Assembly (NCBI GenBank): GCA_001724265.1
Contig: MEDY01000164.1
Span: 62,001 to 126,000, forward strand
From: Rhizaria sp. SCN 62-66
Lineage: Eukaryota
Reading direction: 5' to 3'
Length of the DNA: 64,000 nucleotides
Part shown: in pieces, positions 2,185-59,612 of the stretch
Numbering within the stretch: the first letter of the stretch is position 1
How the letters are laid out: each line of letters opens with the position of its first letter
Program-made: the position numbers and the translations under genes
Notes under the pieces: model-generated
Told to the model about the DNA's origin: nothing
The model's database searches: none
The model's input: only the letters and a program-made list of their open reading frames with translations

Positions 2185-2777
2185 GGGTCACTTAAACCTC
2201 ACAAATGCACAATGATGCGCGGTGTGAGCTCTGGGTGAGAGGGGACTGTGCTGCGATGGTCGAGAGGAGGATGGAGAGGAGGAGGTGAGGTGAGCACGCG
2301 GTCGGAGGAAACCGAGGATATTCCCACATATATCAGTTAACTATAGAGATAGCACAACATAAATTAGCTTCTAAACCAGATGTACAGTTTCATGCTCCGC
2401 CCGCACTCCGACTATCGGTCATACTGATGCAGTAGAACGATGCGAAATATGATATCTTGAGAGGCACAAGCTTGGATGGCGCGCTGCCGGTCTGGCAACC
2501 ACACCGTTCGGCTGCTCGAGAGTGCGTCGCGCAAACATCTCCAGCGCACCCAAACGTCCGTTAATACGAAATTCATGCTACATAAGAAAACCAAACGTAC
2601 AATAACATCTTTTACTAAAACTGTATTTGAAAAATAGTTTGTTTTCCACACCTAGGCGCCTGTCTCCGCGACCCTTTCCGGACCGGCCCCGACTGAACCT
2701 CTCCAACACCTCCGCTCCGCCGGCGCTCGCCGCCCTTACCCCTCGCTTAGCTCTAGCCTGGCTTTTCAAGCGCACCC
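2185..2777. promoter_or_regulatory. Candidate bidirectional promoter between the repeat-protein gene and NOL9
   Basis: 593-nt spacer between divergent ATGs, with AT-rich patches. Confidence 0.45.
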
Positions 2778-31417: not shown

Positions 31418-31496
<79 letters not shown>

Positions 31497-34400: not shown

Positions 34401-37400
34401 CCACAGTCACCGCGACTGCGCGTGTGTGAAGCGTCACTGCATCACTGACCACTTACACTCTGCCGCGCAAACAGGTCTAAGTAGTATGATCACAAAAACG
34501 TGTTCGTGCACTAACCCTGGTCTTTTAAGTCCCTTGTCATCACCCGCAGCGATGAACTTCGCCCCCGCCGCCGCCAGCATCCGCGCCGCGCGCGTTGCCT
34601 GGCTTTCCCTCGCGCGCGCCCAGTCCGAGGCGCGTGCACTCGCCCGCTGCCGCGCGCACGCACGCCGCGTCGCGCACTTGCGCGAGGCGTACGCCGCCGC
34701 CGCTGCTGCGGCCGCCGCGCGCGCCGCCGCTGCCGAGCGCGCGCAGCTCGTTGCCGCCGCCGCGCTGGCCGAGGCGCGTGTCATCGCGCTGACGCAGGAG
34801 CTGCGCGCGCACACGCACGCGCGGCGGCTGCACTGGACCGTCGCGCGGTGCGCTTGGCGGTGGCGCGCGGTTGCACGGCGCAACACACTGCGCAGCACGC
34901 TCGCCGTTTGGGTGCACTCAGCGCAGGTCGCCAAGGACGCGCTGGCCGTGATGACGCGGTTCGCGGGGAAGTTTGCTGACCTGCGCAGTGCGTACCGCGC
35001 GTGGCGGCGGCGGCGCGTGGTGCTGGCGTGGCAGCGGTGGCACTCCAAGGCGGCGACACTCTTCGGGGGGCACGGCGGTTTGACTTCGTACGCCGAACGG
35101 GGAGGTGCGCTGGGGCAGCAGCAACGGGCCGAGCTGGCCGTCGAGCTCGACAAACACGCGCTACTGTCGCAAGCGTGGGCTGTCATGCGGACTCGCTGGC
35201 GCAAAGTGAGGCCGCGTGTTGCACGAGCGCGCGATAACGCAGCTTTGACTCGGAATCAGACTCGGAGTTTGACTGGCGCTGCAGAGAGGGCTGAGGCTGA
35301 GGCTGAGGTGAAGACTCAGGCTGCTGTTGCTGCACTGGCAGGTGTGAGTGCCGCCGGTAAGATTATCGAGTCTAGGCGGGACGGCTGGAGACTAAGGGGT
35401 GCGTTCAACCATCTAAGGGGGTTGATCGGCGTGCTTCGGCCCGGTCTAAGCGCACAAGCGCCCGTTACAGCACCCGGCGGCCCCGCGCTTCGTCTCACGG
35501 CCAACAACACTGGCCCTAACACTCCTGCTGATGACGGTGACGACGCTATTGATCTCGACACACGTCATGGGCAACGCATTGGCAATCAGCGCGTTATGAG
35601 TCGCCTTGGTCGGTACAGTGCGCACACGGTCTCTGTTGCTGGCGTAGTTGCGCTATTCCAAGCGCGTGGTGTGCTGCCTCCGACAATTGACAGTGCAAAC
35701 GCCGCGAGAGTAACTAGTTCGACTGCATATAGCGCTGATGCGGACACGGAGACAACTCGTGAAGCAGTCGGTCGCTATCTCACTTACCACGCCTCGCTAG
35801 ACTTAGGCAGCAACGGCAACAATCACCGCATCTATGACGACGACACTGACGACGACGGTGTCGACGGCGATGACGTGGAGTACCACCTTCGCCGCCGCTC
35901 TGCGCCTGCGCCTTCTCGCAGCGCCTCTCGTGGCAGTCGTTCTGCTGTCTCGAAGCTAGACCCAGACCAGTCCCGCCTTGTCACCGCAGCACTCTACGCC
36001 CGCGCGCGCGCTCTCTTCACCCACCTCCGCGCGTGGCGCAACCACTACCGCCTGACAGTTGCCCTCCCGCGCCTGCGCCGCACGCTCGCGCTTACCTCCG
36101 CCTTCACCGTCTGGCGCCGCCGCGCCACGGCTGGCCGTCTCGCGGCCGCCAAGGCCGCGCTCGCGGCCGCCGCAGCGTTCAAGAAGTGGCGCAAAGTCGC
36201 CTCGCTGGCCCGCCAGCGCGCGCGTGCCGTGGAGGCCTGTCTCGCGACCGTGGCTAACAGAGCGCGCGCGCTCGTGCTCGAACAGTGGCGACTGCGCATC
36301 GCCGAGTCGCGCGCGCAGGACGCGTCGCTGTCGGCGCGGCTGCGGGCTGCGGTGAAGCTCTGGCGCAGGCATGCGGTACAGCAGGCGCAGGTGCACTCGA
36401 AGAAGATGCGCGTCATCCGGCTAAAGTCAGCGCTTGCGACTTTTCGACACAACTCCGCTTTCTGCACGGAGCTCCGCGCTTTTACTGCACAGCGGCTTGT
36501 GCACTCCAAGGCTGCGACCACGCACAGTGTGTTTACGAACTGGCGTAAGCTGGCGCTCGCTGCCAAGCACCACCGAATCACCAGGTTACGCGACGCCTTC
36601 CGTCGCTACCGCGATACAACGGCGGCGCTCGCAGCCACGACGGCCACGGCCACGGAGAAGCTGACTCGCATGCGCCTCGTCGCTGCGGTCAAGAACTGGC
36701 AGCGGCGCGCCAAGAGGACCGCCGCGGACAACTCCACCGTCGCCCGCGCGCGCTCGACCCTCCGCGGCCCGCTGCTGCTGCAGAAGCAGACGTTCAAGCA
36801 CTGGGCGGCGCTCGCGGCCGCAGCGACCGCTGCGCACACCGCGGCCCTGCGCCGCCGCGTCATCGCATCCGCGGCGCTCGCGGTCTGGCGCCGCCGCGCC
36901 GCCGCCGTGCGCGCCGCCGCGCTGGAGCGCGAGACCGAGGGCGCGGCGCGGCTGCGCGCGGTCTGGCGCGCGTGGCGCGAATCGCACGCCGCGCGCCGCC
37001 GCGTCGACCGCATCGGCGTGCGCGTCGCCGCGGTGACCGAGCGCAACACACTGGCGGACGCGCTCCGCAGCTGGGTCGCGGTCAAGGCGGGCCGCGAGCG
37101 ACAGCGACGCGAGGGCTTCCGCCGTTGGCGCCGCGCTGCGTGGACCCAGGCGGCCAACCGCACCGCGGCCACGTACGCGCAGTCACGGGTACGCGCGGAC
37201 GCGTGGGTGCAGTGGCGCGCGTTTGTGCAGCGGCTGGGTGATCTAAGTCAGGCCGCGGCTGCGCACACCCGCGCGCGCGCACTGCGGACGCTGGCGGGGT
37301 GCTTCGTGCACTGGCGCCGCGTGCGCAGTGACCGTGAGCAGGCCCGCGTCGACGATGACGCGATCGCGCATTTCCAGGGCGTCACCGCGCCGCGCAACGC

Positions 37401-40400
37401 GATGCACCGCGCGGTGTTGTTCCTGCGCTACCGTGCCGTGACCCGCAAGCGCGGTGCGCGCCTCGACGCCGACGCTGACGCCGCCGCAGCGACGCTGAGC
37501 CTGCGTCGCGGCGTCGCTGCGCTGCGCGAGAACGTCACGCGCACCGACGCGGAGCGAGAGATATGGGGCCGCGCGCAGGAGCACCGCGACAGCGCACGCA
37601 AGACCCGCATGTTCCGCGGCTGGCTCCAGTACGCGCGCCACGCACGCGTGCTTGCCAAGTCTGGCGGCGCCGCCGAGGCCGCGGCCGCGAGCAGCGTGCT
37701 GCGTGAGTATTGGAACAAGTGGCGCCAGGCCGCCGCCTTTGCGGCGTACACGCGCGACGCCGCGCTGTACATGCTGCGCTACCGCGCGCAGCGCGCCGTG
37801 TTGGCGCTGAGCATCAACGTGCGCCGCAACCAGACCGTGCGCAACCTGCAGCTTTGGCGGCGTGACGAACAGCTTAAGTCCGCCGTCACTGCGCTGGCTG
37901 ACAACGTGCGCCGGCAGCACTGGGAGCGCGCCGCCGTCACCACTGCCGACGCCGCCGCGGCCGCGGCCCGCTCGCGCGACGCGTTCTGCTCCTGGCGCAA
38001 CGCGGCCGCGATCAACCGCTACCGCCGCGCCGCGATCACGCCGGCGTTCCAGCAGTGGCGCGACCAGGCCGGCCGCCGCGCGCGGTTGCAGGGGCTGTCT
38101 GCGGTTGTTCAACTCACGGTCACGCGTCCACATGCAATGCGCAAGGCCATGCGCGCGCTGCGCGTTGTTCTCGCGCGGTCGATGGCCAAGCGCCGCGAGA
38201 TGGCTGACGCCGAGGCGGCCTTACTTTGGTACCGCCGCCGCAACGCGCTGGTGCAGCTGCGCACGGCGCTGGCGGCCAAGGAGCGCGCGCAGTCGACCAA
38301 GTACCGCATGTACTTGCTCTCAGGACGGCTGAACTTCGAGTCGCTGCAGCGCTCGGCGTGGGAATCACTGCGCAACGCGTACTGGGCGCGTGCTGCTGAC
38401 CGCAAGTCCCGCGCGTTCCTGCTGCAGCACCTGGCGGCCCCCGCGGTTGCAGCGCTGCGTGCGCTGGTGTTTAACCGCAGTGACTGCGAGCGGCGGCGCG
38501 CGGCGCAGGCGCAGTGGTTGCGTTGCCAGCGCCAGCGCCGCGCACTGCAGCGCTGGCGCGAGGCTGTGGCGGCCGGGAAACAACGCGAGGCCACCGCCGT
38601 CCAAGCCGCTCGTGCGCTTGCACTGCGCCGCGCAGTGCTCGCGCTGAGGCGCTCGATCTGGCTGCGCGACAAGAGGCGCGTCGGCGCAAGCGTCGCGGAG
38701 ACCGCGGAGACCATGGGGCTGTTGCGCAGTGCGTGGCGCACGTGGCGCGCGCGGCTTAACTTAACGCGCGACCTTGAGCACGCGCGCACGGTCACTGCGC
38801 ACAACCACCAGCAGCGCACGTTGGCAGGCGTCTTGTCGCATTGGCGCGAGCTTACTCAGTCCAAGAGACTAGAGGCAGAGCTTGATGCCAAGGCGTGTGC
38901 TTTCCATTTGCTGTCGGTTGTCCGCAACTGGCGCGCTCAAACGCGCGAACGCACACTCGCAGCCCTCACCAAGGTACGGCTGTTGACTGCGGCCGCGGAC
39001 CTAAGGGTCGTGGCCCTCACGCGGTCCGCGTTTGTGCGCTGGCGCAAGGCGTACACGGCTAAACTTCTCCACGCGCGCGCGCTCACAGTCGCCCCCAAGA
39101 TCCGTGACGCGTATCTGCTGAAGCAAGCGTGGCAGCACTGGAAGGACGCGACTGCGGCAAAGCTGCAACAGCAACTCTTTGAGCTGCAAGAACAGCAACA
39201 GCTCGAACAGCAAGAGCGCGAGCGTGAGCTGTGGCTGCAGCAAAGGGAAGCAGCTGAAGTTGAGGGTGCATTCGGTGACCGTGAACGCGAGGCGGCTTTC
39301 ATTAAGAGCGTGCAAGGCCGCGTTCTTACAGTCGTTTCGGAACCGCACCCGCACGCGCCCCCTGCCACACAACGCGGCTTTACTTCGAACAACAGCGGCA
39401 GCAGTGATAACGAAAGTGGCGACGACGACTCTGGTGTCGTAGGCTTTGCTCCCTACCGTAGTCGCAGTGGCCGTGAGCGTGAGCGCAATGCTCGGGCCGT
39501 TGCGTTATCCCTGGGCACTGGCAACCGCCGCGATGTTAGTAGTGGCAGTGACCGTGCGGCGTTACTTGTTGCGGACCCCGATGGAGGCATGCGGCCTAAC
39601 TTCGAGGGCGCGGGCACGAACATTGACGCAGAGGCGGGCTGGGACACTGAGGACGAGGAAGCGCCGGGCACCAGGCAGACTAGCCTCAACCAGGACGGCA
39701 GCAATAACAGCTTCGATCTCAACATCACGCTCACACCTCGCCGTCGCCACCGTGACGCTGGCAGTGTCTCCGTCCACGTCCACGCCCAAACGAACGACGG
39801 CGAGGATGGCACTGCACTCAGTGTGGATTCGCGGGCACTGGTTCCCGCGTTTCCTGCTCTCCGCCTCTTTCGCAAGCGCGCCACTGCGTACGCACCGCTG
39901 CCCGCGAGCACGATTTTTCGGTCCTGGCTCTCCTGGGCGCGCGTGCGGTCAGCGCACCGTGCCGCTGCTACTCTGCAGTCAGTGGCTGTGAAACGCGCTG
40001 CGTTCCGGCGCTGGCGCGGTGTTGTCGTTGCGGAGGCGGAGGCGGAAGTGCGGACGCTGCGGATGGCGGCCGCGGCCGCCCTAGCGACGCAGAGCAATGG
40101 CGCGATTTGCACGGCGACTGTCCCTGCTTCTGCGGGTGCTGTCTCTACCGCTCTGCGTCGTAACTCGGTCACTGGCTTGCCGGTCTCCGTCGACGTCACA
40201 AGCTACAACAGCGTTAACCGGGAGGACGACGCTCGGTATGCGCGCCTTCTCGATCCTGACGCCCACAGCAAGTCTGCTTTCAGTGGCGGCGTCGCAGCGC
40301 AAGCGGGGGCTGCGGCGGCGGAGGCTGCTGTTACGGGGTATGACGAGAGCGAGAAGGCGATTGGCGAGGCCCTGAGACAGCTAAGTACTCCGAAGAAGAG

Positions 40401-41868
40401 GCGGTCTTGCCGTCAAGGTGACAATGTGACTGTAAACACTCACAATAACTCGCATACGTTATCATCGTCGTCGTCATCAGAGTCGTCATCGTTGTCGTCT
40501 GAGCTGTCTTTGCTGTCACCATTGCCGACGACGTCGATCTCAGGAATGTCATCACCGGAGTCTATGTCACCGCTCTCACAGCTCCACTCACACTTGCAGT
40601 CGCACGTGCAATCGCGCTCGCAGCCGCAGTCAAGCTCGCAGCCACAGTCAGGGCGTTCACAGCCGCAGCTCCGGCCGCACAGTGACTCCGCCAACAGTAG
40701 AGGGGTGAGTCGTGCCGCGTTCGACTTGATTGAAGAGCACAATGATGAGAACGACGACGATGCTGACTGCTCTTTCACATTTGCGGGCCATACTCGCATC
40801 ATCCGCACAAGTGACCGTGGGCGCCGCAGTGGCCGTGACCGTGAGCAGTCCATGCGTGACCGCGATTGTCAGTGTGAGCAGAGTGACTGTGAGCAATGCG
40901 AGAACTCTGACTTTGAGCGGATGCTTTATAGAGCAGGGGTTGAGGCGCATGCTCTGCTTGTGAAGCGCAAGGTGTTCACTGCGTGGCTGGGAGCCTTTAT
41001 CAACAAATTCCACGCCAACAGTCACAACCTGAACAGATACGTAAAGGACGACGACGACGACGATGGCGACGATGCTCACGATAGTACGAACAGTGTCTTA
41101 GATACATCGATCGACGAGGACTCGTCTCACTTGAAGTATAGCCGCTACGTGCCCTCAAAATTAAGCCCCCAAGGAGATGACCTTGTTTCTCCGTTCTCGT
41201 CGCCAGCTGCCGCTCAGAGTCACAGATCGCAAACTGCTAAGACTAATCACAACAACGGCGGCCACACGCCGAGTGGTTTCACCTTAGCGTCTCCAGTGTC
41301 TGCGCACTTGCTCGCAACGCCGGACGCTTTAGCTGTGAACAGTAGCACGGACAACTCCTTCGTCAACCAGCAGCATGGCGCTCTGCCTGTGAACATGAAC
41401 ACCAGTCTCGACTCGACCGCTGATCACCGCACCGGTCGTTACAACGCTGCGAACGCCAATGACGCCGATGTGGATGGTTATCACTACAACAACAGCTTCA
41501 AAGAAGAGGAAGATGAAGACGGTGGCCGTGAGCAGGGACAGATGAGCGCCAAGAAGACCTCTCCTGGGCGGTACAGCGTTCGCTTCACTCACGATGACAG
41601 CCCAGCGACTGGCGCCGACGGCGGGAACAACGATAACGAACACAACAACAACGAGGATGACGCTGTTGTTGCTAGCTCGACGTGGATTAGCCCGAGCATC
41701 CCTCTGACTCAAATTCCTGCCCCCACGGCCACGGCCACGGCCACGGCCACGGCCACGGCCACGAGCAACACGAGTCACAGTCCTGGCTCTAGCGCTGTGA
41801 CTGCAGCTGCTGGCAGTGTGTTTCTGACTGGTCAGCCCCTAAAGATCACTCTTCGCAAAAAGACATAA
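31037..41868 (+). CDS. SFI1: Sfi1-like centrin-binding repeat protein, about 3610 aa if a 1-nt deletion in the poly-Asn tract at ~31496 is repaired
   Basis: Many Arg/Ala-rich helical repeats ending [AF]xxW[RK] (AFTVWRR, AFKKWRK, VFTNWRK, AFQQWRD, AFVRWRK) over about 34800-40020. ORF 31037 runs into (AAC)n and the frame of ORF 31558 runs out of it. No intron seen; stop is TAA. Confidence 0.75.
31418..31521 (+). repeat. Microsatellite (AAC)26-AC-(AAC)8 encoding poly-Asn
   Basis: Directly visible; one unit at 31496-31497 lacks an A. Confidence 0.97.
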
Positions 41869-45035: not shown

Positions 45036-48000
45036 TTAGAGACTCGAGTCGTCCTTGCCCTTGGCGGTGGCCGCCGCCGTGGCCGCAGCCGCCGCGGCGG
45101 TGGCGAGCGCGTCCCTGCCGACCGCTGAGCCCGGCGTGCGCACGGTGAGGTCGGTGCCGAAGCGCGACTGCGGCATCAGCGCCGAGTCGTCGACCGCCAC
45201 GGCGCCGCCCGCGGACGGCGCTGACTGCGCTGACGGCGCAGTTGGCGCAGTCGGCGCGGTGGAGTCGGGAGCAGCGGTGCTGGTGGCGGCCACCTTGGCG
45301 TTGGCCGAGCGAGCGCTCCCGAACGCGGACGGATTGCTGCTCTGCGCGGGTGGGCTGCCCGAGGATAGCCACGACGCGGAGGCGCCGAACACGGGCCCCG
45401 TGACGACGCCGCTTGTGCTCGCGCCAGCACCTGCGAGAGGGCTGGCACTGGCGGCAGCGTCAGGGCCAGTGACTGGGCCAGTGGATGCGCCAGTGTTCGC
45501 GATCGTGTCAGAGGTGCCGGGGACCGAGGTCGTACGGAACAGCTGTCTCTGCGCCGCCGTCACTCTCTCCACCGCGCCGGTACTCGTGTTGAAGCTCACG
45601 CTGCTACTCGTGTTGCTGCTGTTGTTGCTGCTGTTGTTGTTGTTGTTGTTGTTCGCCGGTGTTGACGTGCTGGAGAAAGCGGCCAGCGCGGCGACGGCGG
45701 CCGCAGCCTTGGGAGTGCCGCTGCTGGCCAGTGACCGCGCCGCGCGCGCACCGGCGGCGGCGTCGGCCACGGCGGCCTCGGCGGCGCGGCGCTGCGAGTG
45801 CGCGGCGGCGGCCATGGTCTCGGCCACAGCGTCGAGCAGCGGCAGGTTGAGCTGGCACAGACGCCAGAGCAGGTTCCACAGCAGCGTCGGGTGGCGGTGG
45901 CGGAACGACGGCGACAGCAGGTACGCCGCCGCAGACGGGTCCGAGAACACCGACAAAATGTTCGCGGCGGAGTGCGATTGTGACTGTGAGTGCGTGGCGT
46001 CGCCGCTGCTGAGCTGGCGTGCGCGGAGGACGCGCGCCAGCTCGAGCAGCAGCACGCGCGGCGGCAGACAGGGCACCGTCGCCACAGGCCGCGGCGCGCG
46101 CGGCTGTGACCGAGCCGGCCGGCGCAGCGCGGACGCGGGGACCAGGCCGCTCACACTGGTAGTCGCAGGAGCGGTGGCGCCGACAACAGGGGACGCGCCG
46201 CCAGCAGCCGCGGTGCCACTGCTGGTGTGGGCGTTTGTGTTGCTGGATACAGGGCCCGAGAACGACACGCTCAGCGGCAGCGGCGGCAGCGCCGCGCCAG
46301 CACCCGCGCTGTTCACGCCCGCGACTGCGTTTGCGGCAGCCGAGGGCGTGGGCGTGGGCGCGGGCGCGGGGTCGAGATTGAGCGCGCAGTCGTAGTCAGC
46401 GAAGGGCGAGTGCAACAGCGCCAGCGTCGCGGGCGGCAGCGTGCGCGCGGGCTCCACCGAGACCGTGAGCAGCGGCACGAACGCGCAGCCGCACGACGGA
46501 CACGCCAGCGCAGCCGCGGAAAGGTACGGCTGCGCCACAGCCAGCGGGCAGTCGCCAGCGAGCGCGACGGCCTCCTCAGCCTCGGCGTCGGCGTCGGCCG
46601 CGGCCTCAGCCTCCGCCGCAGCGGCCTCCGCCTCGGTCTGACTGTGACTGTGCCCGCGACCGTGGCTGTGGCGGGCCCGGCGGCGGCGCGCGGCGGCGGC
46701 CCGGGCGGCGTGCCTGCGCGCGCGCTGTGCCTTGTAAAGCGTCGTCGCGGCGTCGATGTGCCAGAGCAGGTTCAGCTCGGTCGCCAAACTGCAGCCGCAG
46801 CGCAGGGCCGCGCCCGAGCCGTCCGCGTCGGCCTCGTCGCCGTCGTCACCGTCGTCGCCGTCGTCGTCCCTGGAGGCGACAGAAGCGCGGGCGCTGGCGT
46901 TGGTGCTGGCGTTGGGGCGTGAGTCGGAATCGGGGAGTGACAGCGCGGGGGGCAGCGGTGGCAGCTGCGGCATCAAAGTTAAGCCGCCGCCGCCGACACC
47001 CGCGCCACCACCGGTGTTGTGGATGGCCGTGGCGGTCATGTCAACGGCTGCAGCACCGGTGTCGCCGCCGACCGCGACGGCCGCGATCGCCAGAGCGGCG
47101 GCCGACGCGCGGGGCCTCTGCTTCTCGCTCGCGCTCACTCTCGCCGAGCCAGCGCCTGTGCCAGTGCTGATGGTCGACGCGGCGTGTCCGTTGCGCGCGG
47201 CGACTGCGGCGGCTGCGCGCGCGAGAGTGGCCGCCGGCAACGCGCAGCGCCGGCAGCCGCACACCTTCTCGCCCGCACTGACCAGACTGCTGCTACTCGA
47301 GCTCGCGTGCGCAGTGCTTGCGGTGGTGTTAGTGCTGGTGTATACTAGCGTGTCGCCGCGGACGCCCTTGAGCGCGCGCGCGGCGGCCGCGGTGGGCTGA
47401 CAGCGTGCGGTGACGGCGACGGTGAGGCCGCGGAAGAGCGCCTCGAAGCGCGCCACAGCGTCGTCGTGCTGCTCGGCCTGCGCGCGCGACGTCGAGAGCG
47501 ACAACAGCACGGCCGCAGGCAGCGCCGCGTCGCCCGCGTCCGCGGGAGAGGCGGGGTACGCGGCCTCGATCGCGGCCTCGACGTCGCTCTCGCTGCCGGT
47601 ATCGCCGGGCGCGGTGGTGCTGTAGCGAGTGAGCGAGTCGTCGTAGAAGGCGTCAGCCCGCTCGGTCACGACGGTGTCCGTCGATGGGCTTGCAACAGCA
47701 CCCGCTGCACCCGCACCGGCGCTGGCACTGGCGGCAGCGCCGCCGGAGCTCGAGGTCGCGCTCGAGGTGGTGTGGCTGCTCGCGAGAGACTGCGGCGTCA
47801 AAGGCGTCGCCAGCCGGTCGTTGCCGCTGCTGGCGCAGCCCAAGCTGTCGCTGCTGCCGTTGCCGTTGACGCGCAAGTGGCGCTGGGACTGCTCCTGCGA
47901 CGACGGCGGCGACTGCAACTGCATTTGCATCTGCGAGTGCGCGCGCGTGAGCGGCCGCGGCAGCGGCGCGCGCGCGGCCTGCCACACGGCGACGACCGCG

Positions 48001-51000
48001 AGCGCGAGGTTCGCGAGCACTGCGAGGCGCACCAGCTCGGGCCGTTCAAGCGAAGCCACAACCTGTTGAACGGCGGCGCTAGCGCTGGAGGAGCCGCCGA
48101 CGATAACGCTGACGCTGACGCCGGTGGCGCCGACGCTGGCGGAGGCAGGGGCGGGCAAGACGAAGTGCGACACGGGCGCCGCTGACATCAGCATAGCGCC
48201 GCTCGCGGGCGAGTTAATCGCGGCGGTGGTGGGGGCGGCGGTGAGGCTTGGCGTCGGCGCCGCGGTTGCCGACGTCGCCGTGGCAGAGGGGCGACGGCTG
48301 AAGAAGTCCGACAGCTTGCGCTTCAGCAGCCCCGGCGTCGACACCGGCGCAGCCGCGGCAGCGTTGGCGTTGGCGGGGGGCTGTGCGGGGGACGACGGCA
48401 CAGAGCCGCGCGCGCGCGCAGACGCAGAGGCAGAGGCGGGCGCTGCCGCGGTGAGCGATGGCGAGTGCAAGTGCAACGGCGGCGGCGACGGCGACGCGGC
48501 CGCCTTGGCCGGAGCAAACCCAGCCGGTGAGCCCGCGACAGCGTTCGCGGCCGCAGCGGCGTTGCTCGGTGTGGTCGGCGCGCTGCGGTACGCGTTCGAG
48601 TTGGACTGCGCGTGCGCGCGCGACGCCAGCAGCGCCGCGGCGGCCGCGAGGGGCGCGTACGGCAGCGCGCGCAGGCGGCCGGTGGGCCACAGCAGCGCGG
48701 GCACGGAGACGGAGCCAGAGCCAGACATCGAGACTAAGTCCAAGCTTGAACTCGAGCTCACATTGGCGCTAGAGCCAAGCGTAAAGGTAGAGCTCGCGGT
48801 GTTGTTGTTGTTGTTGTTTGTGGCAAGGTCGGCGGCTGAAGCGGTCAGCAGCGACAGATACAGCGGCACCAGCGGCAGGCTCTCGGGCGTCGCTGTGAGC
48901 GCGAGCCGGTCGGCGACGCCCACCGCGGGGGGCTCCCATAGTGAGGAGCCGGGGGACGCAGCAGACCGCGCGGCGACACCAGGCACAGTCAGCGGCAAGA
49001 ACTCGACGTTACCCGCGCTCCTGTCACCGCTGTCAGCGTTTGTCTCCTGCGCATCAGCGGCAGCGGCAGCGGTCGCAGTCTCGGTCGAGGTCGCGACCTC
49101 GACCGCCGCGGCGGCGACGACGTGAGGCGGCGGCAGCGGTTGCGCGCGCGCCTCCCAAGCCACGCGCGCGGCGAGGGACGCAAACCACTCGGGGTAGCCT
49201 GGCGCGGAATCGGCCTCGGCGGCCGCGGCCGCGGCGGCCAGCGCGGCGCCGGTCACCGCGACGGGGCTGGCGCCGACAAAGCTCGCGGCGGGCTGGAGAG
49301 AGCCGGTCGCACCGCTGATGTTGAGTGTTATGCCGCTGATGTTCGCGATGCTGTTGCTGTTGCTGTTGCTGTTGTTGTTGGGCCAGCCGTCCGCGCGCGA
49401 GCTAGGCGGCGCGACGACGACGCGCGCCTGCGGCACGACCGCAGACCCAGCGGCAGCGCTTGCACTAGAGCTGGAAGCGGTCGGGGCGAGCGGCGACGAG
49501 GACGACGAGGAGGACGAGAGCGAGAGGGTGTAGGCCTGTTGACGCGCCTAACCCCGGTCGGCGCTGTTGGCGGCGCTGCTGCTACCGCCGACGACGCTGC
49601 CGCTGCTGGTGCGCATCGGAGACAGCGCGCTCAGGGCGGCGCCGCTCGCGTTCGCAGTGGCGCCGCTGTTGTTGAACATCGGCGGCGGCGGGGGCGGGGC
49701 GCGGCGCGCACCGAGTCCGGGGCTAGCGCCAGGGCTCAGCATCGGAGAGCCGACGAAGCTGCCGCGCGCGGTGCCGGAGCTCTGCAGCGGCGAGCCGACG
49801 AAGCTCCCGCGCGCCGCGCCTGCACCGGTGTTCGCGCCAGCGGTAGCGCCGGCGGTGTTCGCGGAGACGGGGCTGCTGAAACTGGGCCGCGCGCTGCCGT
49901 TGGCGCTGGAGAGCGCGGCGAAGCCCGGGGAGCCGGGCGCGGCGTTCATGCTCGACCTGCGGAGCGCGGCGGCCGCGGCGGCGGCCGCGGCCGCGGGGGC
50001 CAGAGCCGCGATCGCCGCGACGGCGGCGGACGGTGGCGGCGCGGCGCCGGCGTGCGGCGGCGGCGGCGGCGGCGGGGCAGAGCCAGAGCCTGAACTCGCA
50101 GTGATGGCATGGGTAGTAGAGGGGGAGGCGGCGACAGGGGGCGGCGGCGGGGGCACGCGGGGCGGGGGCGAGGCCGGCGTCGAGGCCGTCGCACTAGCGC
50201 CTGCGCTGAGGTTGCCGCTGCTGCTATTGCTGCTGCTAGAACCGCTCGAGCTGGTGCTTGCGGCGGCCGATGTGGGCCTGTTGCGCGAAGCCCGACCCGT
50301 GGCGCCACCACCCTTGCTGCGGAGCGCGGAGCGGCCCGCGCCAGAGAGCCGGCTGCGGTGCTCCCCGCCGAGCCCGCCGCCGCCCAGCAGCGCCGCGGCG
50401 GCGGCCGTGTCGACGCCCGAGGCCACGGAGAACCCGCCGCCCGCGCCGCCGGCGCCGCCGAGGCCCAGCCCCGCCGCGGCCGAGCCGGGGTTGAACGACA
50501 GCGAGAATCTACCGAGCCCGTGCCCGCCGCCGCCGCTGCTGCTGCTGGAGGTGTAGCTGTAGCCCGAGCGGCCGCCGCGGGCAGAGTCGGCGCCGGCTCC
50601 ATAGGGCGGCGACAGCAGCAGCGTCGCGCCCGCGCCCGCCGCAGCGTTGGCGCTGAACGTGTCGAGCTGGGACGACGACGCCGAGCCTGAGCCGATGTTG
50701 TTGGCGCGCAGGGCCGAGCGCTCCGGCAGGAAGACGTTGGCGCCCGAGGCGAGTCTGACCGAAACGACCTCGTCAGCGCGCGCGACGCCGAAGGGCGTAA
50801 AGACGCACGGCAGCGGCGGGTGCGGCGACAGCAGGGCCAGCGACAGCGACGCGTCTGGCGGCGCGAGCGCGCGCGGGGCCGGGAACGCGGCGCCCGAGGG
50901 CGACACGGCGGCGGGCAGCGCGGGTGCCAACGGCGCAGGCCGGCACAGCCAGTCGCGGTACAGCGGGTTGAGCGCGTGCCAGCCGTCGGCGGGCGCAGAG

Positions 51001-52842
51001 TTATCGTCCCAGCCCACGCTTGCGTTGTTGCTGCTGCTGCAGCTGTTACTGTTGCTGTAGCTGTTGCCCGGCGACGCAGGCGTGTTGTAGGCGCCGGGGC
51101 CGTTGCGCCCGCTGTTAGGAGCAGACGAGGACGCGGCGGCGGCGGCGGCGGCGGCGCGGGCGCGCGCGCGGGCGCGGCGGCGGCGCGAGCTGGCCGGCAG
51201 CGGCGTGGGCAGCGGCACGGCGGCGGGCCCGTTGAAGAGCTCGGCGGCCCAGGGACCTGAGCACAGCAGCTGCAGCACAGCCGCCAGCAGCGGACACGGC
51301 AGCGCGGACGGGAACGGCGAGTCGGCCAGCGCAGACGCGTCGCTTGTCACATTCGCCACGCGCACCGCCGCCGCGTCCGCGCCCGTGGTGTTGGGCCCGC
51401 CAGCAGCGGCGGGACTCTTAGCGTCTGCGCTGCTGCTTTGGACGTGCGCCGGCCACATGATGCTCGCGTTGACCGCGGGCTGCGCGTGGGCGTGGTGCGC
51501 CGCACCGGCCCCAGGCCCAGTCAGCGGCGTCGGGGGCGCGGTGACGCTGCCACGCGGCGGCGGCACGGGCGGGGGCGCGCTGCTCGACGTGGGGACCGCG
51601 GCCTGCTTGCTGGCGGCGACTCTGGAGCCCGCGTTGGCCGTGGAGCCGGCGCCCGACGCGGACGCGGACGCGGCGTCGGCGGCTGAGGTGGACTGCAGAG
51701 CTGAGGCGCCGGGGACGAGGTAGGGCGGCAGCGTCATCGAGATCGCGAAGGTCGACGCCGGCCGCGACAGCGACGGAGCGGCCGCGCCGTTGCCGCCGTT
51801 GCCGTTGCCGTTGGCGGCGGCGGCGCTGACCTCGGAGAGCGGGCTCGAGGCGGGCGGCGCGGCCGCGGTGATGGACGGCGACAGAGACGACGAAGATGAT
51901 AGGAACGACTCCAAGCTGAAGGTCATCGCAGGCGGCGACAGCACGACGTTCTGCTGCGGGCCCTCGGTGCCGGTCGTGGTGACATCTGCGTTATCGTCGT
52001 TGGTGTTGTGCTCATTGTCGCTGGGCACGTCCGCGTCGGTGTCGGCGTCGGGCAGCGGCGAGAGCTTCCTGACCCCGCTGCGACTGCTGCGCGCGCCCGC
52101 CTTGCGCCCGCCGCTGCTGCTGCCGCTTTGTGTGCGCGCAACCGAGGGCCGTGGTGTCGCCGTGAGCGCCGCCTGCGACGCGGACGTGGCCAGCGGCTGG
52201 TACAGCGGCAGCAGGAATGACGCGGCCGAGGACGCGAACGACGCCGCCGCCGAGGGCAGGAACGACAGGCCATACTGTGACGGCGACTGCAAAACGGCCC
52301 CGTTGCTCCCGGCCGCCGCGGCGGTGGCCGGGCTGGCGGCCGCGGCCGCGCCGGTGCTGCCGGTCTGCGACGCGGCGGAGGGCCCGCGCGCGGCGGCGCG
52401 GTAGTAAGGCCAGTGCTTGGCGGCGGCGCAGAGGGCCTCGGCGAGGGCGTGCGTGGCGTCGGCGTAGGACAAGTAGAGCTGGCCGGCGATGAGCGCGACG
52501 CGCGGGGACCGGTCGCGGGGAAACGCTCCCGACCACGTGGGCGTGAGCGCGAACGGCGACGCGAACGAGGACGAGAGCTGCGCAGACTGCAACGACGGCG
52601 GCGGCAGCGGCAGTTGCGCCTGCGCCGCCTGAGGAGACGGCGACGGAGACTGTGACTGTAAGGCAGCACTGGGGAGGGGAGCGAGGCAGTGAGCGCAGAC
52701 GATGACATCGGTGTACTGCGCCTGCTGCTGCTGCTGCTGCTCGGAGTCCTTCTCTTCACTCGCATGCCCGCGAACAACGAGGGCAGTCGTCGAGCTCGCG
52801 CTCGCATTCGCATCTGCGCGGTCCGACGCAGCAGCAGCGCCG

Positions 52843-52874
<32 letters not shown>

Positions 52875-55800
52875 CGTTGGCGCAGCGGAGGTCGTAAGCA
52901 CCGTGACGGTCATCAGATCGCCGCGCCCGCGCGGCAGCCCCGGCGCCGCGCACAGCGCGCAGAGCGACGGCGGCAGCGCCGTGTCGCGCGCGAACTGCGG
53001 TGCGAAGAGCGGGAACGGCGGCGTCGGCCACACAGGCTCGTCGCCACCGAGCCCCACACCGCTGGCGTTTGCGCTGCTGCTTGCGCTGCTGCTCGCGCTG
53101 CTGCTTGCACTGTTATTTGCGCTGGCGCGCACGCTGTGGGGTCCGTGCGCGAGGGCCCATGCGCGGCGTTGGTAGTCGTCGTAGCCGCGGGGCAGTGCGG
53201 CGGCCGCGGCGTCTGCAGCCAGGCACGCCGGTGTGAACATACCCGCGAAACTCAGCCGCTGCTGCGACGCGCGCGGCTGCTGACCGCCGCCTCCGCTGCT
53301 GCTGCTGTTGTTGTTCATCCCGGCAGGCGGCGAGAGCGACATGGAGCCACGCGCGGTCGACAAACCCTGCGACTGCGAGGTGGACTGTGAGTGGGAACCG
53401 GGCAGCCCGAGCAGCGACACGGAGCCGGTCCCGGTTCCGGCCACGACGCCCGGTGAGCCCGCCGCGGGCAGCGTCGACGCCGCCGTCACGGTCACACTGG
53501 GCGTCGCTCCGACAGCAGCGCCCGCGCCTGCACTGGCGCTGGCGCTCATGCGAGCAGCGGAGGCGGAGGCTGAGGCGGCAGCGGCGGCCAGCGCGCGCTG
53601 CGCCTCGAAGGGCCGCGAGCAGTGCAGATACGGCACGAACGGGAACCCCGCCATCGGCGTCTCCTGGATGGTCGCCTTGACCGGCGCGGCCGACAGCCCG
53701 CCGACGCCGGCGCCCGCGCCCGGCAGAACCGCGCCGTTGCCGTAGCCGGGCGCCGCGGTGGGGTCCGCGCCCGCAAGAGCCGCGCCCGCGGCGGCCGCGG
53801 CGGCGATGGCCGAGGCCGACATGGACTGCTGCGACAGAGTAGCCGCGGCGCTGGCGTTGGTGGGCGTCGTGTTGCCGACCGCGGCCGACACGATGCTGCT
53901 GCGCCACGGCGCGCTGCTCGCGCCTGCGGCCTTGTCCGCCGCGGAGGCCGCGGGCGTCGCGAGCGAGTCAGGACGCAGCAGCAACGCGACGTACGTCGGC
54001 GTCGCGGCGGGCGCGGCCAGCAGCGCGGCGGCCGCGGCCTGCGACGTTTGCTTGCGCCGGCGGTGCCGCGCAGTCTGCATTGCCACCGCGGCGGCGGCCG
54101 CGTCCGACGGGCCGATGGGCGCGGGCAGCAGCGGGCGGCGGCGCGCGGCCGAGAGCGTCTGCAGCAGCAGCTGCCACACGCGCGACTGCAGCACGTAGCC
54201 GGCGTTGTTGTGGAACGATGCGTGCCCGCCGTCGCCGTGGGTGTTGGATGGCGGCATCAGCAGCGCCGGCGCGCGGTACAGCGGCGCGGGCCGAACCGGC
54301 GGCCGCGGGGGCTGACTGGGGACGAGGCTCTTGCTCTGCGTGAGGACGCTCTGCGCGTGGCCGTGCGCAGCGGCAGCGGGGGGGTTGCTGGCGAGCGCGC
54401 GCGCGAGCAGCGCGGCCTGCGCGCGCGCGTGCAGCGCCGGCGCGGCGGCGAGCAGCGCGAGCGGCGTGGCAGCGAGCGCGCCCGCGAAGGGCGGGAAGAG
54501 CGCGTCTTCAAGCAGCGGAAACGTCGGGTAGCGCCAGGGCCGCGCGAACGACAGCCCGTCGATGGCGGGCGGCGGCGTAATGAGAGTGCACGACACGCGG
54601 CCGCCCGGGAAGGTCAGAAACGGCGTCGGCTGCGTGCGCGTGAACGTGTGGCGGTTGCGCTTGTCAGTCACGGACTCGGAGAAGAAGAGCAGGTGGTGCG
54701 CCACGGTGACGGCGATCGAGGGGTAGATGCGCTCGTCGAGGAACGTCTGGAACGCCTGGGAACCCGTGATGACCTGCAGGAAGCGCCGCGACGCAGCGGG
54801 CTGCGACTTGAGGAACGCGGCGCAGTTGAACGCCGAGTCCGTATCTAACCCGCGGCCGAAGCCGGTGTGCGATGGTGACACCGCGGAGGACGCGCCGGCA
54901 GCTTTCGCGCCCGCACCAGCGTTGGCGTGGGAGCCGGCGTTTGCGGCGTGGGGCTGCGGCGAGGGCTGCAGCGCGCTGTCGGTCGTGAGCAGCGGCGCGA
55001 GGCCCGCGGGCGGCTGCTGCAACAAGCCGGGCGCGGACTCGCTGTGCTTCACGCCGCCGCCGCCCACACCCGCGCCGGGACTCGCATTCGTCGCGACAGC
55101 GGTATCAGTCGCCTTCGCAGAGCTGCCGTGAGCAGCGCCGCTCTCAGCCGCCGTGCCGCTGTCCTGCACCGCGACTGCGGCCATGGCGTCCGCGGCCTCG
55201 GCGGCGGCGAGCGGGGCGACTAGTCCGGCCCAGAGCCCGTCCTTGGCTCCCGGCCGCAGCGCCGCCTCGAGCGCCTTGGCCTCACTGCGGGCAGCCTGCG
55301 CGGCGGCCGCGGCGGCCGCGGACGAGTGCGGCGCGGGGCCCGGCGCGTCGCCCGCAAAAGCCCAGGGCCAGAGCGGGTGGCCCAGGCCCCAGATGCTCGT
55401 GGCCGACGGCGGCACGGGCACCACGGCGCCCGCGGCACCAGTGCCGAGAGTCGCGCTAGAAGCGTTGATGTTGTTGTCGCCCGTCGACGTTGTGCTGTTG
55501 TTGTTGTTGCGCGCGTACCCGGTGGCGGCGGCAAGCGCGAGTTCCTCGACGGCCCGCGTCTGCGCGCGCGCGCGGTCATTGAGCCTGCGCTGCACCGCGT
55601 CCTGCCCCGGCGGCAGCGTGACCGTGAGCCGCGCGGGGTCTAGCCGCCGCGGCAGATGCTCCTGGATGTCTGCCAGGAGCGAGATCTGCGCGCGGAAGAA
55701 GGCGCGGCGCACGACACGGTCCAGCGCGGCCAGCTCCAGCGGCGTCCACACACGCCATTCAAGCCCGACGGTGGTAAGCCACGTCGCCGTCATGGCACCG

Positions 55801-58800
55801 ATCACCGCGGGCGTGAAGGCGGACACGGGCGGGGGCGCGACGCCGGTGCCTGCGAGCGCCTCGGCCGCGGCCTGCGCGGCGGCCAGCGCGGCGGCGCCCG
55901 TGGCCGCGGCGGCGTGCGGCGACTGCGTGGCGCCCAGTCCCACGTTGGCGCTCGACTGCAGGAAGAACGGGTTGCTCTTGACCAGGCGCGCGTCGACCTC
56001 CGGTGACAGCAGGGTTGCCAGCGCCGCCGACGGCACGCGGATACCTGGGCCCGCGCCGGAGGCCGCGGTGCGCGGACTGGCGGCGATCGCGGCCGACATC
56101 GCGGCGGTCGCGGCCGCGCTGGCGTTGCTGGGGCCCGCGGCGGCTGCGGCGGCCGCGGCGCGCGCGGAGGCCGAGAGAGGGACCGCGCCGCCGCCGGGCG
56201 CGTGGCTGGCCGCGGCGGCCGTGGCGGCCGTGATGGGATCCAGCAGCGGCGCCAGAATGCGGTTGTAGTCGCTGTCGGGCACGGTCAGCGGGCCGGAGCC
56301 GATGGCGAGCGGCAGAGTAACGCCGCCGCCGCCGGGCAGCGGGAGCCCGCCCGCCGAGGCGGCACCGAGCGCCTCCGTGTCGACCACGTCGTCGTCGTCT
56401 GGCGGCGGCGCGAACGCGAAAGCCAGGTCCGCGTTGGCGCCGGACCAGCGCACGAGCGAGAGAGGGGAGAAGGCGGCCGGGCCCAGCGTGGCCATGACGG
56501 CCTTGGTGGCGGCCGCGGCAACGACCGAGGCTGCGGCGGGCGACGCGAACGCGCTCGACGGTCCCACCACCGCGGGCATCGCCGCAGAGACAGCGAACTG
56601 CCCCGCGGCGCCCGCGCCCGCATGCGCGCCCGCGCCCCCCGAGCCCGAATGCGAGTTGTTGAGCGAGGAGCTGAAGGGCGAGGTGAGCGGCGCCGTGAAC
56701 GCCTGCAGCGGCGCTGAATACATACTCGTGTCCCGCCCCGCGCGTGCGATGCCGCGGTTGACGGCGGACTTGGGGTCGCGCATCACGGACCCCACGGGCT
56801 CGATCGCCTTGAGCAGCTTCTCGCGCACGCGAGCGGGCAGCTGCACGAGCGCCTCGCCGCCGTGCGCCTGCGCCGTGCCCTGGTCCAGGTGCACGACGAC
56901 GAGCCCGTCGAGCGCGCCCAGGTCCTCGTCCAGGAAGGCCAGCGTCGACGTGTGCGCGCCGATGAGGTAGGGCATGGGCGCCGAGACAAACGAGATGAGC
57001 TTGCGCGGGAGCAGCGGAACATACACGTGCGGCCAGCGCAGCGGGTACAGCAGCAGCAGCAGCGCCTCGCACACAGGCACCAGCAGCGACACGTTGCTGG
57101 AGAGCACGAGCACGCGCCGCTCCTGCATCAGCGCCTCGACCACCGAGAGAACCACGGCCGCGGGCAGGCACTGCAGTAGCGGCAGCGCGGAGACCGCCGA
57201 CGGCTCCAGAGGGTTCTGCGGCGGCGGGCGGTGGAAGAAAATGTTCACGCCTATATAGAAAGAAAAGAAACAACGCAAATGGTCAAAGAGAGACTTGAGT
57301 TAGACGCGTGTCGAGATAAAAAGAATGAAAATGAATAGAAAAGAATATTAAACGAAATAAAATCGTAAAATTGTGTTATTTTCGTGATTTGCGTGAAATA
57401 AATATTCGTGTTACGTACCGGGCGTCACCGTGCCGCCGCCGCCGGCCTTGCCGACGAGGCCCGTGGCCGCCGTGTAGACCGCCAGGCGCGCCAGGAACGG
57501 GTCCGGGCCCAGGTGCGGCAGCGGCATGCGCGAGTGCAGGAACAGCGGCGGCGCGCCACCGGAACCAGAGGCGGTACCCGTGGGGGGCATGAGGGCCGGG
57601 AGCGCGCCCGCCGCGGCGACGGCGTGGTAGCCCGCCGTGTCCGCACCGTTGCCGCGAGGAGAGCGGCGCGCAGTGCTGCTGCTCCCGTTGTTGTTCTGCT
57701 TATCGTCGCCATCATTGTTGTTGTTGTTGTTGGAATCGTCTTGATCGGGGTCGCTGCCGAGGTTTTCGCTGTCGCTGTCGCCGTCGTTGCCGTCGCCATG
57801 GTAGTCATCGTCGTCGCCGTCGTCGTACAGCAGGCCGTCGCAGTACGCCCACAGGTCGGCGTGCTCCTGCTCCTCGTCTTCGTCCTCATCTTCATCTTCG
57901 TCGCCGTCGTCGTCGCCGTCGCCGTCGCCCGACTCGGGGGCACTCGAACGCTTTTTGGAGCCGCCAGCCAGCACCACGGCAGTCGAGTCACTCTTAGCAT
58001 CCTTGTCTTTGTTGTTCTTGTTCTTCCCGTTCCCGTTGCCGCTGCCGTTATTGTTCCCAAGCAGACTGAGCTTCTCCAGCAACGGGCCCATGCCGCGGCG
58101 CACGGCCTCACGCCGCGCCGCCAACACCCGCTGCCCGTGCAGCCTCCGCAGCACGAGCGGATCGAACGAGGACAGGTTGAGCTGCACCCGGGCACCTCCC
58201 AGCGCGGGCAGCGGCGTATCGTGCAGCAGCACGGAGAGGTACCGCTCCAGCGGCAGCGCGCAGGGGGAGAGCGTGAGCCGGTAGAGCTCGATGAGCGTGG
58301 TGCGGAACTCGGCCAGGAAGGGGAAGCATGACAGCAAACAGATGACCTTGGTGGTGTACAGTGTAGGCAGTGCGGGGAGCTTCGCGCGTACGGCCGCGGC
58401 CAGGCGCGGCGACGGCGGCAGACGCAGCCAGGTGGGCAGCGAGCTACTGTTGTTGCTCGCGGCGGCGGCGGCAGCGGCGGCGGACTGAGAGGTGGCCGAG
58501 GTTGACGGCGACAGAGTCGGAGGCGCCAGTCTAGAGCCAGTACTCGCACTAGGATTAGAGCCTGAGGCCGAGGCAACGAGTCCACCGCCGCTGCCGCTGC
58601 TGCTGCTCGCCAGCGCGGCCTTGCCCGCGGCGGTTGAGTTGGTGGGGCTGGCGCAGGCGTGTGGCCCGAAGTGCTTGGCCTCGTACTGCGCCTCCATCGA
58701 GCGCAGCAGCGTGACGACTTCGGCCTCGGGCACAGGCTCCTGGATCACGATGCACGTGCCAAACATGCGCTCGCCGCCCGCGAGCGTGCACGCGAAGTAC

Positions 58801-59612
58801 GACAGCTTGGGCAGGTCGGGCGCGTCCGTCAGCGGCACGCCGCCCGCGGGGACGCAGAAGAGCGAGACCGTGGGAGGCATGGGGTGCGTCGGCCGGTCGC
58901 AGCGCGGGTACCGGTCGAGGAGTCCGCTGCGATACAGCCGCGAGCGCGCGAGCGTGAGCAGCGCAGACTGCAGCGTGCGGCGGTGGTCCAGCAGCGCGGG
59001 CAATAGTGAGGACCCGTGGGGCAGGTCGAGCCGGCCGCGCGCGTCGAGCACCACGCCGGGGCCGAACGCGGCAGAATGAGACGCTGCATTAGCCGCTGAC
59101 GCTGACGCTGAGGTGGGCAGCAGTTGGGACGCAGGGGCGCCGGGCGGGCGCGGCTGCGGCAGCGGCTGGGGCGGCGGAGGACGCCTCGACTGAGACTGTG
59201 ACTGGGCGTTGAGACTAGCAGCGCTGAGGGGGGCGTCCGAGTCGGCGCAATTAGCAGCAGTCTTATTCGCACTGTTCGCGGGGCCGGCCTCGGTGTCGGA
59301 GTCGTTGTCGTTGTTAATATTGTTATCGTTAAGTGGGCCTGCCCAGTAGTCGCAGATGGGCCGCCTCGATACAGCAGAGGCAGCAGCGGCGGCCGCGGCG
59401 GCGTCGGCGTTAAGCTCGTCCTCGTCTTCCGAGTTCACCGACGACGTCTCCGAGCTCTCGTCAATGTCGTCGGTGAAGTCTGCGTCCGTGGGCGCCGCGG
59501 CGGGCCCGCCAGCGTCGCCGCTGTCGTAAAAGACTGGCGAGAGCCCGCGACGGCCGACGGTGACGAAGTACTCGATCAGACGCGGCGACGCGTCCTGGTC
59601 GATCAAGTTCAT
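45036..59612 (-). CDS. DENND4: DENND4/CRAG-like DENN-domain Rab GEF, about 4802 codons, with one in-frame TAG at 49550-49548. Exons 59612-57419 and 57250-45036
   Basis: uDENN (PRLIEYFVTVG; LLDRYP...VSLFCVPAG; ICLLSCFPF), cDENN (ERRVLVLS...YPLRWPHVYVPLLP...APMPYLIG) and dDENN (FNCAAFL...SQAFQTFLDER). After the TAG comes a DENND4-type C-terminal block (CPSC...FVPLL; VPCLPPRVLLLEL; HPTLLWNLLWRLCQLNLP). Stop is TAA. Confidence 0.85.

Follow-up and report, generated by a model that had tools for sequence, protein, structure and literature searches.

Few nuclear genetic codes treat UAG and UAA differently. In the rhizarian exLh (Sainouroidea), UAG is read as leucine (PMC5304391), while in Iotanema spirale and phyllopharyngean ciliates it stands for glutamine or leucine, and in Scotinosphaera for serine (PMC5304391, PMC9161772, PMC11687900). 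In Oligohymenophorea sp. PL0344, UAG encodes glutamate and UAA lysine (PMC10553269), and in peritrich ciliates and Blastocrithidia both UAR codons encode glutamate (PMC11687900, PMC12153298). Among the codes listed in these reports, those that reassign UAG alone use leucine, glutamine or serine, and UAG means glutamate only where UAA is reassigned as well (PMC11687900, PMC10553269). Here, we analyze a 64,000-nt stretch of the eukaryotic contig MEDY01000164.1 (positions 62,001 to 126,000, hereafter the window), in which a long gene with a DENN module is crossed in frame by a TAG. UAG is very probably a sense codon throughout this genome, and the sequence evidence points to a nuclear code in which UAG probably specifies glutamate, with UAA and UGA as the only stops. 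In the literature searched, which largely left aside subscription papers and supplements, we found no description of UAG as glutamate combined with UAA and UGA stops; an earlier description is possible. If true, the present case would add this combination, with tRNA and eRF1 both in hand.

A DENN gene with an in-frame TAG

In human DENND4, a long linker connects DENN to a C-terminal domain within the same chain (PMC12311110). The original prediction placed a C-terminal block of this kind beyond an amber codon of the window, followed by 1503 open codons, and the frame on re-reading is as it had been described: on the minus strand, frame 57299-45036 has as its sole internal stop the TAG at 49550-49548 (context GGT TAG GCG), with 2583 open codons upstream, 1503 downstream and a terminal TAA at 45038-45036. 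With a 168-nt intron excised, the gene comprises 4802 codons, of which the TAG is number 3299. The features of this gene are as follows, the last line giving a second in-frame TAG found elsewhere in the window.

57419 to 59612, minus strand: exon 1, with uDENN and the start of cDENN, ATG at 59612 (gene model; Pfam uDENN E 6.5e-9, DENN E 3e-6)
57251 to 57418, minus strand: GT..AG intron of 168 nt, 29% GC, with the sole frame-keeping donor
49551 to 57250, minus strand: exon 2 before the TAG, with the rest of cDENN, dDENN and a long low-complexity linker (Pfam DENN E 6.5e-27, dDENN E 9.4e-9)
49548 to 49550, minus strand: in-frame TAG, by the genome-wide evidence a putative sense codon, probably for Glu
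45039 to 49547, minus strand: exon 2 downstream of the TAG, with 1503 coding codons that show purifying selection (synonymous differences; P0243 match)
45831 to 46502, minus strand: conserved C-terminal block, CPSC ... VPCLPPRVLLLELARVL ... HPTLLWNLLWRLCQLNLP (identity to P0243)
45036 to 45038, minus strand: true stop TAA of the DENN gene, followed by AT-rich DNA (P0243 ends at the same place)
19517 to 19519, minus strand: the window's second in-frame TAG; the unrelated gene around it has 755 open codons ahead of the TAG and 256 beyond it, and ends in TAA at 18746-18748

In the DENN gene, uDENN, cDENN and dDENN are present in that order, each above the Pfam cut-off, and DENND1A/1B chains match the part of exon 2 that precedes the TAG (E about 1e-16). 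Pfam gave no domain match in the part of the protein after the TAG, and the C-terminal block at 45831-46502 had no family or structure match in Pfam, PDB or Atlas. No MABP domain was matched by Pfam in exon 1 at E 0.01, where low-complexity inserts may mask one. CPSC starts at 46502 and HPTLLWNLLWRLCQLNLP lies at 45893-45840, both at their predicted positions. We take the motifs of the block to be DENND4-like; the architecture fits this label, but none of the three resources confirmed it.

Several lines of evidence join the two sides of the TAG. Strain differences in the downstream frame, taken from other sequencing runs, were synonymous in 21 of 25 cases and fell at third positions in 21 of 25, and the relative P0243 is 67% identical over 54 residues to the HPTL block and matches up to the last residue. 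The surroundings had been judged to hold neither an intron that could remove the TAG nor a spacer for a second gene, and both judgments were upheld. Within 600 nt of the TAG the GC minimum is 0.58 per 100 nt, versus 0.29 in the gene's real intron, and nothing AT-rich offers a spacer; three GT..AG pairs on either side of the TAG would keep the frame if spliced, with a GC of 0.73-0.77 and T-poor acceptors, and the next in-frame ATG lies 274 codons past the TAG. Because no intron removes the TAG and 21 of the 25 downstream differences are synonymous, both sides are likely to form one 4802-codon DENN protein. Contigs from the polyA run cover pieces on either side of the TAG; among the pieces listed none bridges it, and the TAG base and a through-transcript are therefore without confirmation. 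Of the other runs compared, X2 and X3 appear to be a single data set; the 15 joints listed are short-sided chance matches.

TAG, its tRNA and eRF1 across the genome

The window belongs to a eukaryotic assembly of 34.9 Mb in 714 contigs. The stop-codon pipeline was run on 47 stretches (524 kb, the window plus 46 of 10 kb), two of them chosen beside a TAG-rich stretch, with each stop allowed through in turn. Coding frames held 16 internal TAG, 0 TGA and 0 TAA in 121,507 codons, and in shifted frames TAG and TAA were about equally common (999 vs. 1180). Heuristic gene ends from all loci fetched numbered 70, comprising 39 TAA, 30 TGA and 1 TAG. Since the sole TAG end runs on for 16 further GC-rich codons to a TGA, and another gene carries a TAG 11 codons before its TGA, TAG stops at most 2 of the 70 gene ends (P 0.001 under an assumed TAG share of 15%).

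TAG is used about 1.3 times per 10,000 codons, some 50 times more rarely than GAA or CAA, and most in-frame sites are in low-complexity regions. Dyneins had 0 TAG in 39,883 codons, with 5.3 expected (P 0.005) or 3.1 if scaled to GAA use, and neither dyneins (17 matches) nor WD40 proteins (149 matches) gave a usable in-frame TAG site. Among 133 matches of a first kinase search, nine had a lone TAG, five of them genuine and four intron acceptors; a second search (143 matches) gave three new single-TAG matches, one of them genuine, for a total of six genuine kinase-domain sites. Two mixed TAG matches and the TAA match were dropped, their stops lying within introns, and two TGA+TAA matches were left outside the check. 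When 22 TAG-flanking segments were compared with Pfam, just one TAG (L048, in a kinase insert) fell inside a matched stretch. In another assembly, gene call P0241 begins just past the hinge TAG of a kinase. The gene at 18746-21673 of the window (minus strand), which contains the second TAG, has a paralogue on another contig (L075 1398-4361) that continues across the same region and carries a TAG of its own, displaced by a few codons; the two are 63% identical locally. The +4 base at 29 TAG sites (G 10, C 9, A 5, T 5) is near background, the 118 nt downstream of the DENN gene's TAG fold like shuffles (z 0.10), with no sign of a hairpin, and an Rfam scan of the window gave no match.

Some loci hold several TAG. 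Stretch L133 (G000:C42:20001-30000), whose coding DNA is lower in GC, has five in frame within its 10 kb; two of these precede a ubiquitin hydrolase domain, and the two adjoining 10-kb stretches hold one. L049, L050 and L051 represent a lower-GC gene family of kinase and helical repeats with several TAG, one at a Trp column; some of these copies may be decaying.

A pattern search of the genome found one tRNA gene with anticodon CUA, in single copy on contig C84, scoring 58 bits with Rfam and followed by a T-run past its 3′ end. The composition of this contig resembles that of the window (r 0.73 and 0.79; the median of 46 stretches is 0.72). In structural register the tRNA is identical to tRNA-Glu(CUC) at 39 of 57 positions, to tRNA-Glu(UUC) at 33, to tRNA-His at 30, to tRNA-Gln(CUG) at 25 and to tRNA-Gln(UUG) at 22. 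Its five outer acceptor pairs are common to both tRNA-Glu and occur in no other tRNA found, and it shares 11 of 15 acceptor positions with tRNA-Glu and 2 of 15 with tRNA-Gln; its variable arm is short, with a 4-nt variable loop. By its sequence, this tRNA is built on a tRNA-Glu body. A wider pattern admitting Gln-type T-arms gave no second CUA tRNA among its 47 matches, no UUA tRNA was seen in the 47 pattern matches or at the scanned loci, although a tRNA with an intron might have escaped, and a strict tRNA-Glu pattern gave no match. The tRNA set is incomplete, since just 63 of 506 Rfam candidates were scored. tRNA-Pyl has a 6-bp anticodon stem and is without the GG and TTC loop motifs. The tRNA found here does not have this shape expected for pyrrolysine decoding, its anticodon stem having 5 bp and GG and TTC being present; the 'Pyl' label given to it by ARAGORN reflects the anticodon only. 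Unusual divergence is apparent in many of the tRNAs here (L004, L021, L011 and other loci); examples are a tRNA-Ala starting GUG and a tRNA-Gln(UUG) with a 5-nt variable loop.

The sole eRF1 gene of the genome (remaining matches are to a Pelota-like gene) carries an in-frame TAG in domain 1, aligned to human Glu107 (L033 1594-1596, minus strand). The same TAG is present in a separately assembled, unspliced contig, L143, which is 100% identical and may share reads with the genome assembly G000. Among 116 homologues this column is E in 106, D in 9 and V in 1, and 1 of 16 metagenome eRF1 loci listed has Q. The gene is codon-biased, and the codon after its TAG is AAA, which no other Lys codon of exons 2 and 3 uses (22 counted in all). 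The changes T32S (GTS to GSS), G57S and K130Q occur in 0 of the 116 homologues, and T58K in one, the 84%-identical relative P0004, which has T58K and M34V in common with this eRF1 and retains GTS. L69 is kept in this genome. In eRF1, Thr32 makes contact with the G of UAG; Iotanema carries a mutation at this residue, T32G, which accompanies its UAG reassignment (PMC5304391, PMC9161772). P0004, P0121 and P0243 are 84%, 81% and 69% identical to proteins of this genome, pointing to one or more close relatives. Three metagenome eRF1 loci of another lineage (L156, L157 and L164) have in-frame TAA (two loci) or other stops, which probably represent ciliate-like codes or assembly faults.

These elements suggest how the code might operate. 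A copy of tRNA-Glu would have acquired a CUA anticodon, would be charged by glutamyl-tRNA synthetase and would pair with UAG and not UAA, while the changes in eRF1 would make it less able to recognize a G in the third position of a stop codon. Because the tRNA would decode UAG and eRF1 would recognize it less well, the ribosome would pass codon 3299 of the DENN gene and produce one 4802-residue protein. The rarity of TAG and its avoidance in conserved genes would probably reflect decoding by a single-gene tRNA that is slow or competes with termination. TAG rarity and the absence of TAG from dyneins hint at a costly, unfinished or young reassignment. The readthrough originally proposed for the DENN gene stands in part: translation through the TAG into one polypeptide is most likely, but it is not special to this gene, as TAG occurs in frame in many unrelated genes, eRF1 and kinases among them, is scarce at gene ends and has a cognate tRNA.

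The amino acid and the competing explanations

Both of the highly conserved columns that contain a TAG are Glu columns, eRF1 107 and a kinase hinge (IVT-TAG-LCEGG). The hinge column is E in 18, D in 3 and P in 1 of 22 other kinases of this genome, with no Q; in 120 CaMK homologues it is E in 104, D in 12, N in 3 and a gap in 1, again with no Q, and P0242, the single independent database homologue, has E. Summed across six sites, Pfam bits were highest for E (564.5), followed by Q (560.7), K (560.0), S (556.8), Y (552.3), L (549.3) and W (547.0); E leads Q by 3.8 bits, K by 4.5 and L by 15. Leu, Trp, Tyr and Ser, at 7.7 to 17.5 bits below Glu, were rejected. The residue inserted at UAG is thus, in our assessment, probably glutamate in the main.

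A number of observations weigh against reading UAG as a genome-wide glutamate codon. The 16 TAG are unevenly spread, with five from L133, two from the window and one (L102) from what may be a wrong-strand call. Highly conserved columns with a TAG number only two, and at one of them, eRF1 107, the closest relative has V; at the other, the hinge, five PDB alignments listed have S in four (KSR) and Q in one (TNNI3K). The lead of E over Q is just 3.8 bits, of which 2.4 come from a single site. Q is found in both nearest CaMK relatives (among the best 49, Q 17, K 13 and E 3), and human NEK1 and one paralogue have Q at variable TAG columns, the other paralogue columns being D, D, T, W, S and S, never E. 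A neighbor-composition test gave E no advantage, ranking it 8th of 20 and Q 16th of 20, with all scores negative, and was uninformative. With respect to the DENN gene itself, 0 of 32 listed contig pieces cover 48441-51191 in a DNA run or span the TAG, and none of 40 difference rows listed (of 47) falls at 49548-49550.

The best-surviving alternative is that UAG, while a sense codon throughout the genome, stands for glutamine or for a Gln/Glu mix, decoded in large part by near-cognate tRNA-Gln(CUG) or by a missed second tRNA(CUA). The nearest homologues have Q at three sites, a single transition turns CAG into TAG, seven locus matches (some overlapping) were to tRNA-Gln(CUG), and UAG-only Gln codes are known (PMC5304391, PMC11687900). 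Q at variable columns fits glutamate if the change from CAG to TAG is tolerated as Q-to-E, and it fits glutamine directly. The sole tRNA(CUA) found, on the other hand, shares far fewer acceptor positions with tRNA-Gln (2/15) than with tRNA-Glu (11/15), the 47 matches of the wider pattern contained no second CUA tRNA, and Q appears at neither highly conserved column in large alignments, which leaves glutamine an unlikely meaning. A half-way reassignment, in which the one tRNA-Glu(CUA) and eRF1 are in competition, some UAG codons still being taken as stops, and the UAG of the eRF1 gene acts as a negative feedback switch, appears a little more doubtful again. Bacterial RF2, with its internal stop as feedback, would be the analogue of such a switch. 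It is hinted at by the purging of TAG from conserved genes when one nonetheless sits in the codon-biased eRF1, next to the AAA noted above, but since chance alone would place a TAG in a gene of eRF1 length about 1 time in 18, the feedback idea is a hint only.

It is improbable that UAG is mainly a stop, with the genes being leaky, truncated or decaying and the DENN gene a case of programmed readthrough or a nonsense allele. In-frame TAG are indeed very rare (0 in 39,883 dynein codons, 0 in 149 WD40 matches), the sites are mostly of low complexity, one aligns with Trp in a paralogue, and 2 of 70 gene ends have a TAG no more than 16 codons before the final TGA. A stop codon would, however, be expected to be common at gene ends, where TAG accounts for at most those two, and the product of the one, essential eRF1 gene would break off at residue 107; there are moreover no in-frame TGA or TAA and no downstream structure, and a cognate tRNA is present. 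Sequencing or assembly errors in this metagenome-derived genome are hardly credible as the source of the in-frame TAG. The contigs holding TAG sites have a depth of about 6-10, and the DENN gene's TAG is in no listed read piece, yet errors would yield TGA and TAA too, against the 16 : 0 : 0 observed, the eRF1 TAG recurs in L143 (with possible read sharing), gene call P0241 of another assembly starts just after the hinge TAG, and the tRNA, the eRF1 changes and the scarcity of TAG stops would stay unexplained. Equally far-fetched is the idea that the two sides are distinct genes, or that splicing or RNA editing takes the TAG out of the DENN transcript: among the RNA contigs listed none bridges the TAG, but there is no AT-rich intron or spacer and no ATG for 273 codons, and editing at hundreds of scattered sites would be needless given tRNA(CUA).

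The organism and the known systems compared

In the same window, a 3482-codon open frame at 31420-41868 (plus strand) has no Pfam match at E 0.01, and a very long NOL9/CLP1-like gene occupies 2757-14505 (plus strand); an ordinary intron at about 10063-10222 accounts for its two overlapping frames. An aminotransferase gene with an intron and a terminal TAA, presumably tyrosine aminotransferase-like, lies at 60662-62559 (minus strand).

A quick one-gene tree of CaMK gave a 50-row clade (SH-aLRT 98) in which the sole named protist is Plasmodiophora and two rows carry a crustacean name; because this clade includes Plasmodiophora, the organism is probably rhizarian. Its small-subunit (SSU) rRNA gene (L036, G000:C706, 1500-5945) spans 4.4 kb and is very divergent, with several insertions. 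These look like group I introns, and one of them contains an open frame for a possible homing endonuclease. Should the organism be rhizarian, UAG would have been captured a second time, independently, in Rhizaria. AT-driven codon capture is a poor fit for a genome this GC-rich, and a code that uses TAG so little is a candidate for an 'ambiguous intermediate' or 'unassigned codon' stage. Standard gene callers split such genes, as with P0241, and codes in which the codon is as sparse as UAG is here easily escape surveys. Both the eRF1 and the tRNA(CUA) of this genome are testable in yeast.

Compared with the Rab GEFs DENND4A/B/C (PMC12311110), the gene described here has the same order of uDENN, cDENN and dDENN, long unstructured linker and conserved C-terminal block in one chain; it differs in that no MABP was detected, in its 4802 residues and in its large low-complexity inserts, and the homology of the C-terminal block to that of DENND4 is a presumed one. 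exLh, which probably belongs to the same supergroup as this organism, also has UAG alone reassigned, with UAA and UGA gene ends at 56/15 there and 39/30 here. Unlike in exLh, Leu is 15 bits below Glu here and the variable arm of the tRNA(CUA) is short; UAG is frequent in exLh, at 384 in 71 genes, and rare here, and the eRF1 of exLh retains GTS and has L69A, whereas here L69 is retained and GTS has become GSS. Iotanema, the phyllopharyngeans and Scotinosphaera likewise reassign only UAG, and Iotanema has a change at the same eRF1 residue, T32G there and T32S here. All three use another amino acid than that favored here, and 78-91% of genes in the phyllopharyngean ciliates use UAG, in contrast to about 1.3 per 10,000 codons here.

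In peritrichs and Blastocrithidia the tRNA(CUA) derives from tRNA-Glu, as it appears to do here, and in Blastocrithidia the use of reassigned codons differs by gene class. Their genomes are AT-rich with both UAA and UAG as Glu, while coding DNA here is GC-rich and no tRNA(UUA) was seen. Finally, PL0344 has UAA as a sense codon and ten tRNA(CUA) genes, where the present genome has UAA as the main stop and one such gene found; the two are alike in that UAG would be read as glutamate through tRNA(CUA) genes whose nearest relative is tRNA-Glu.

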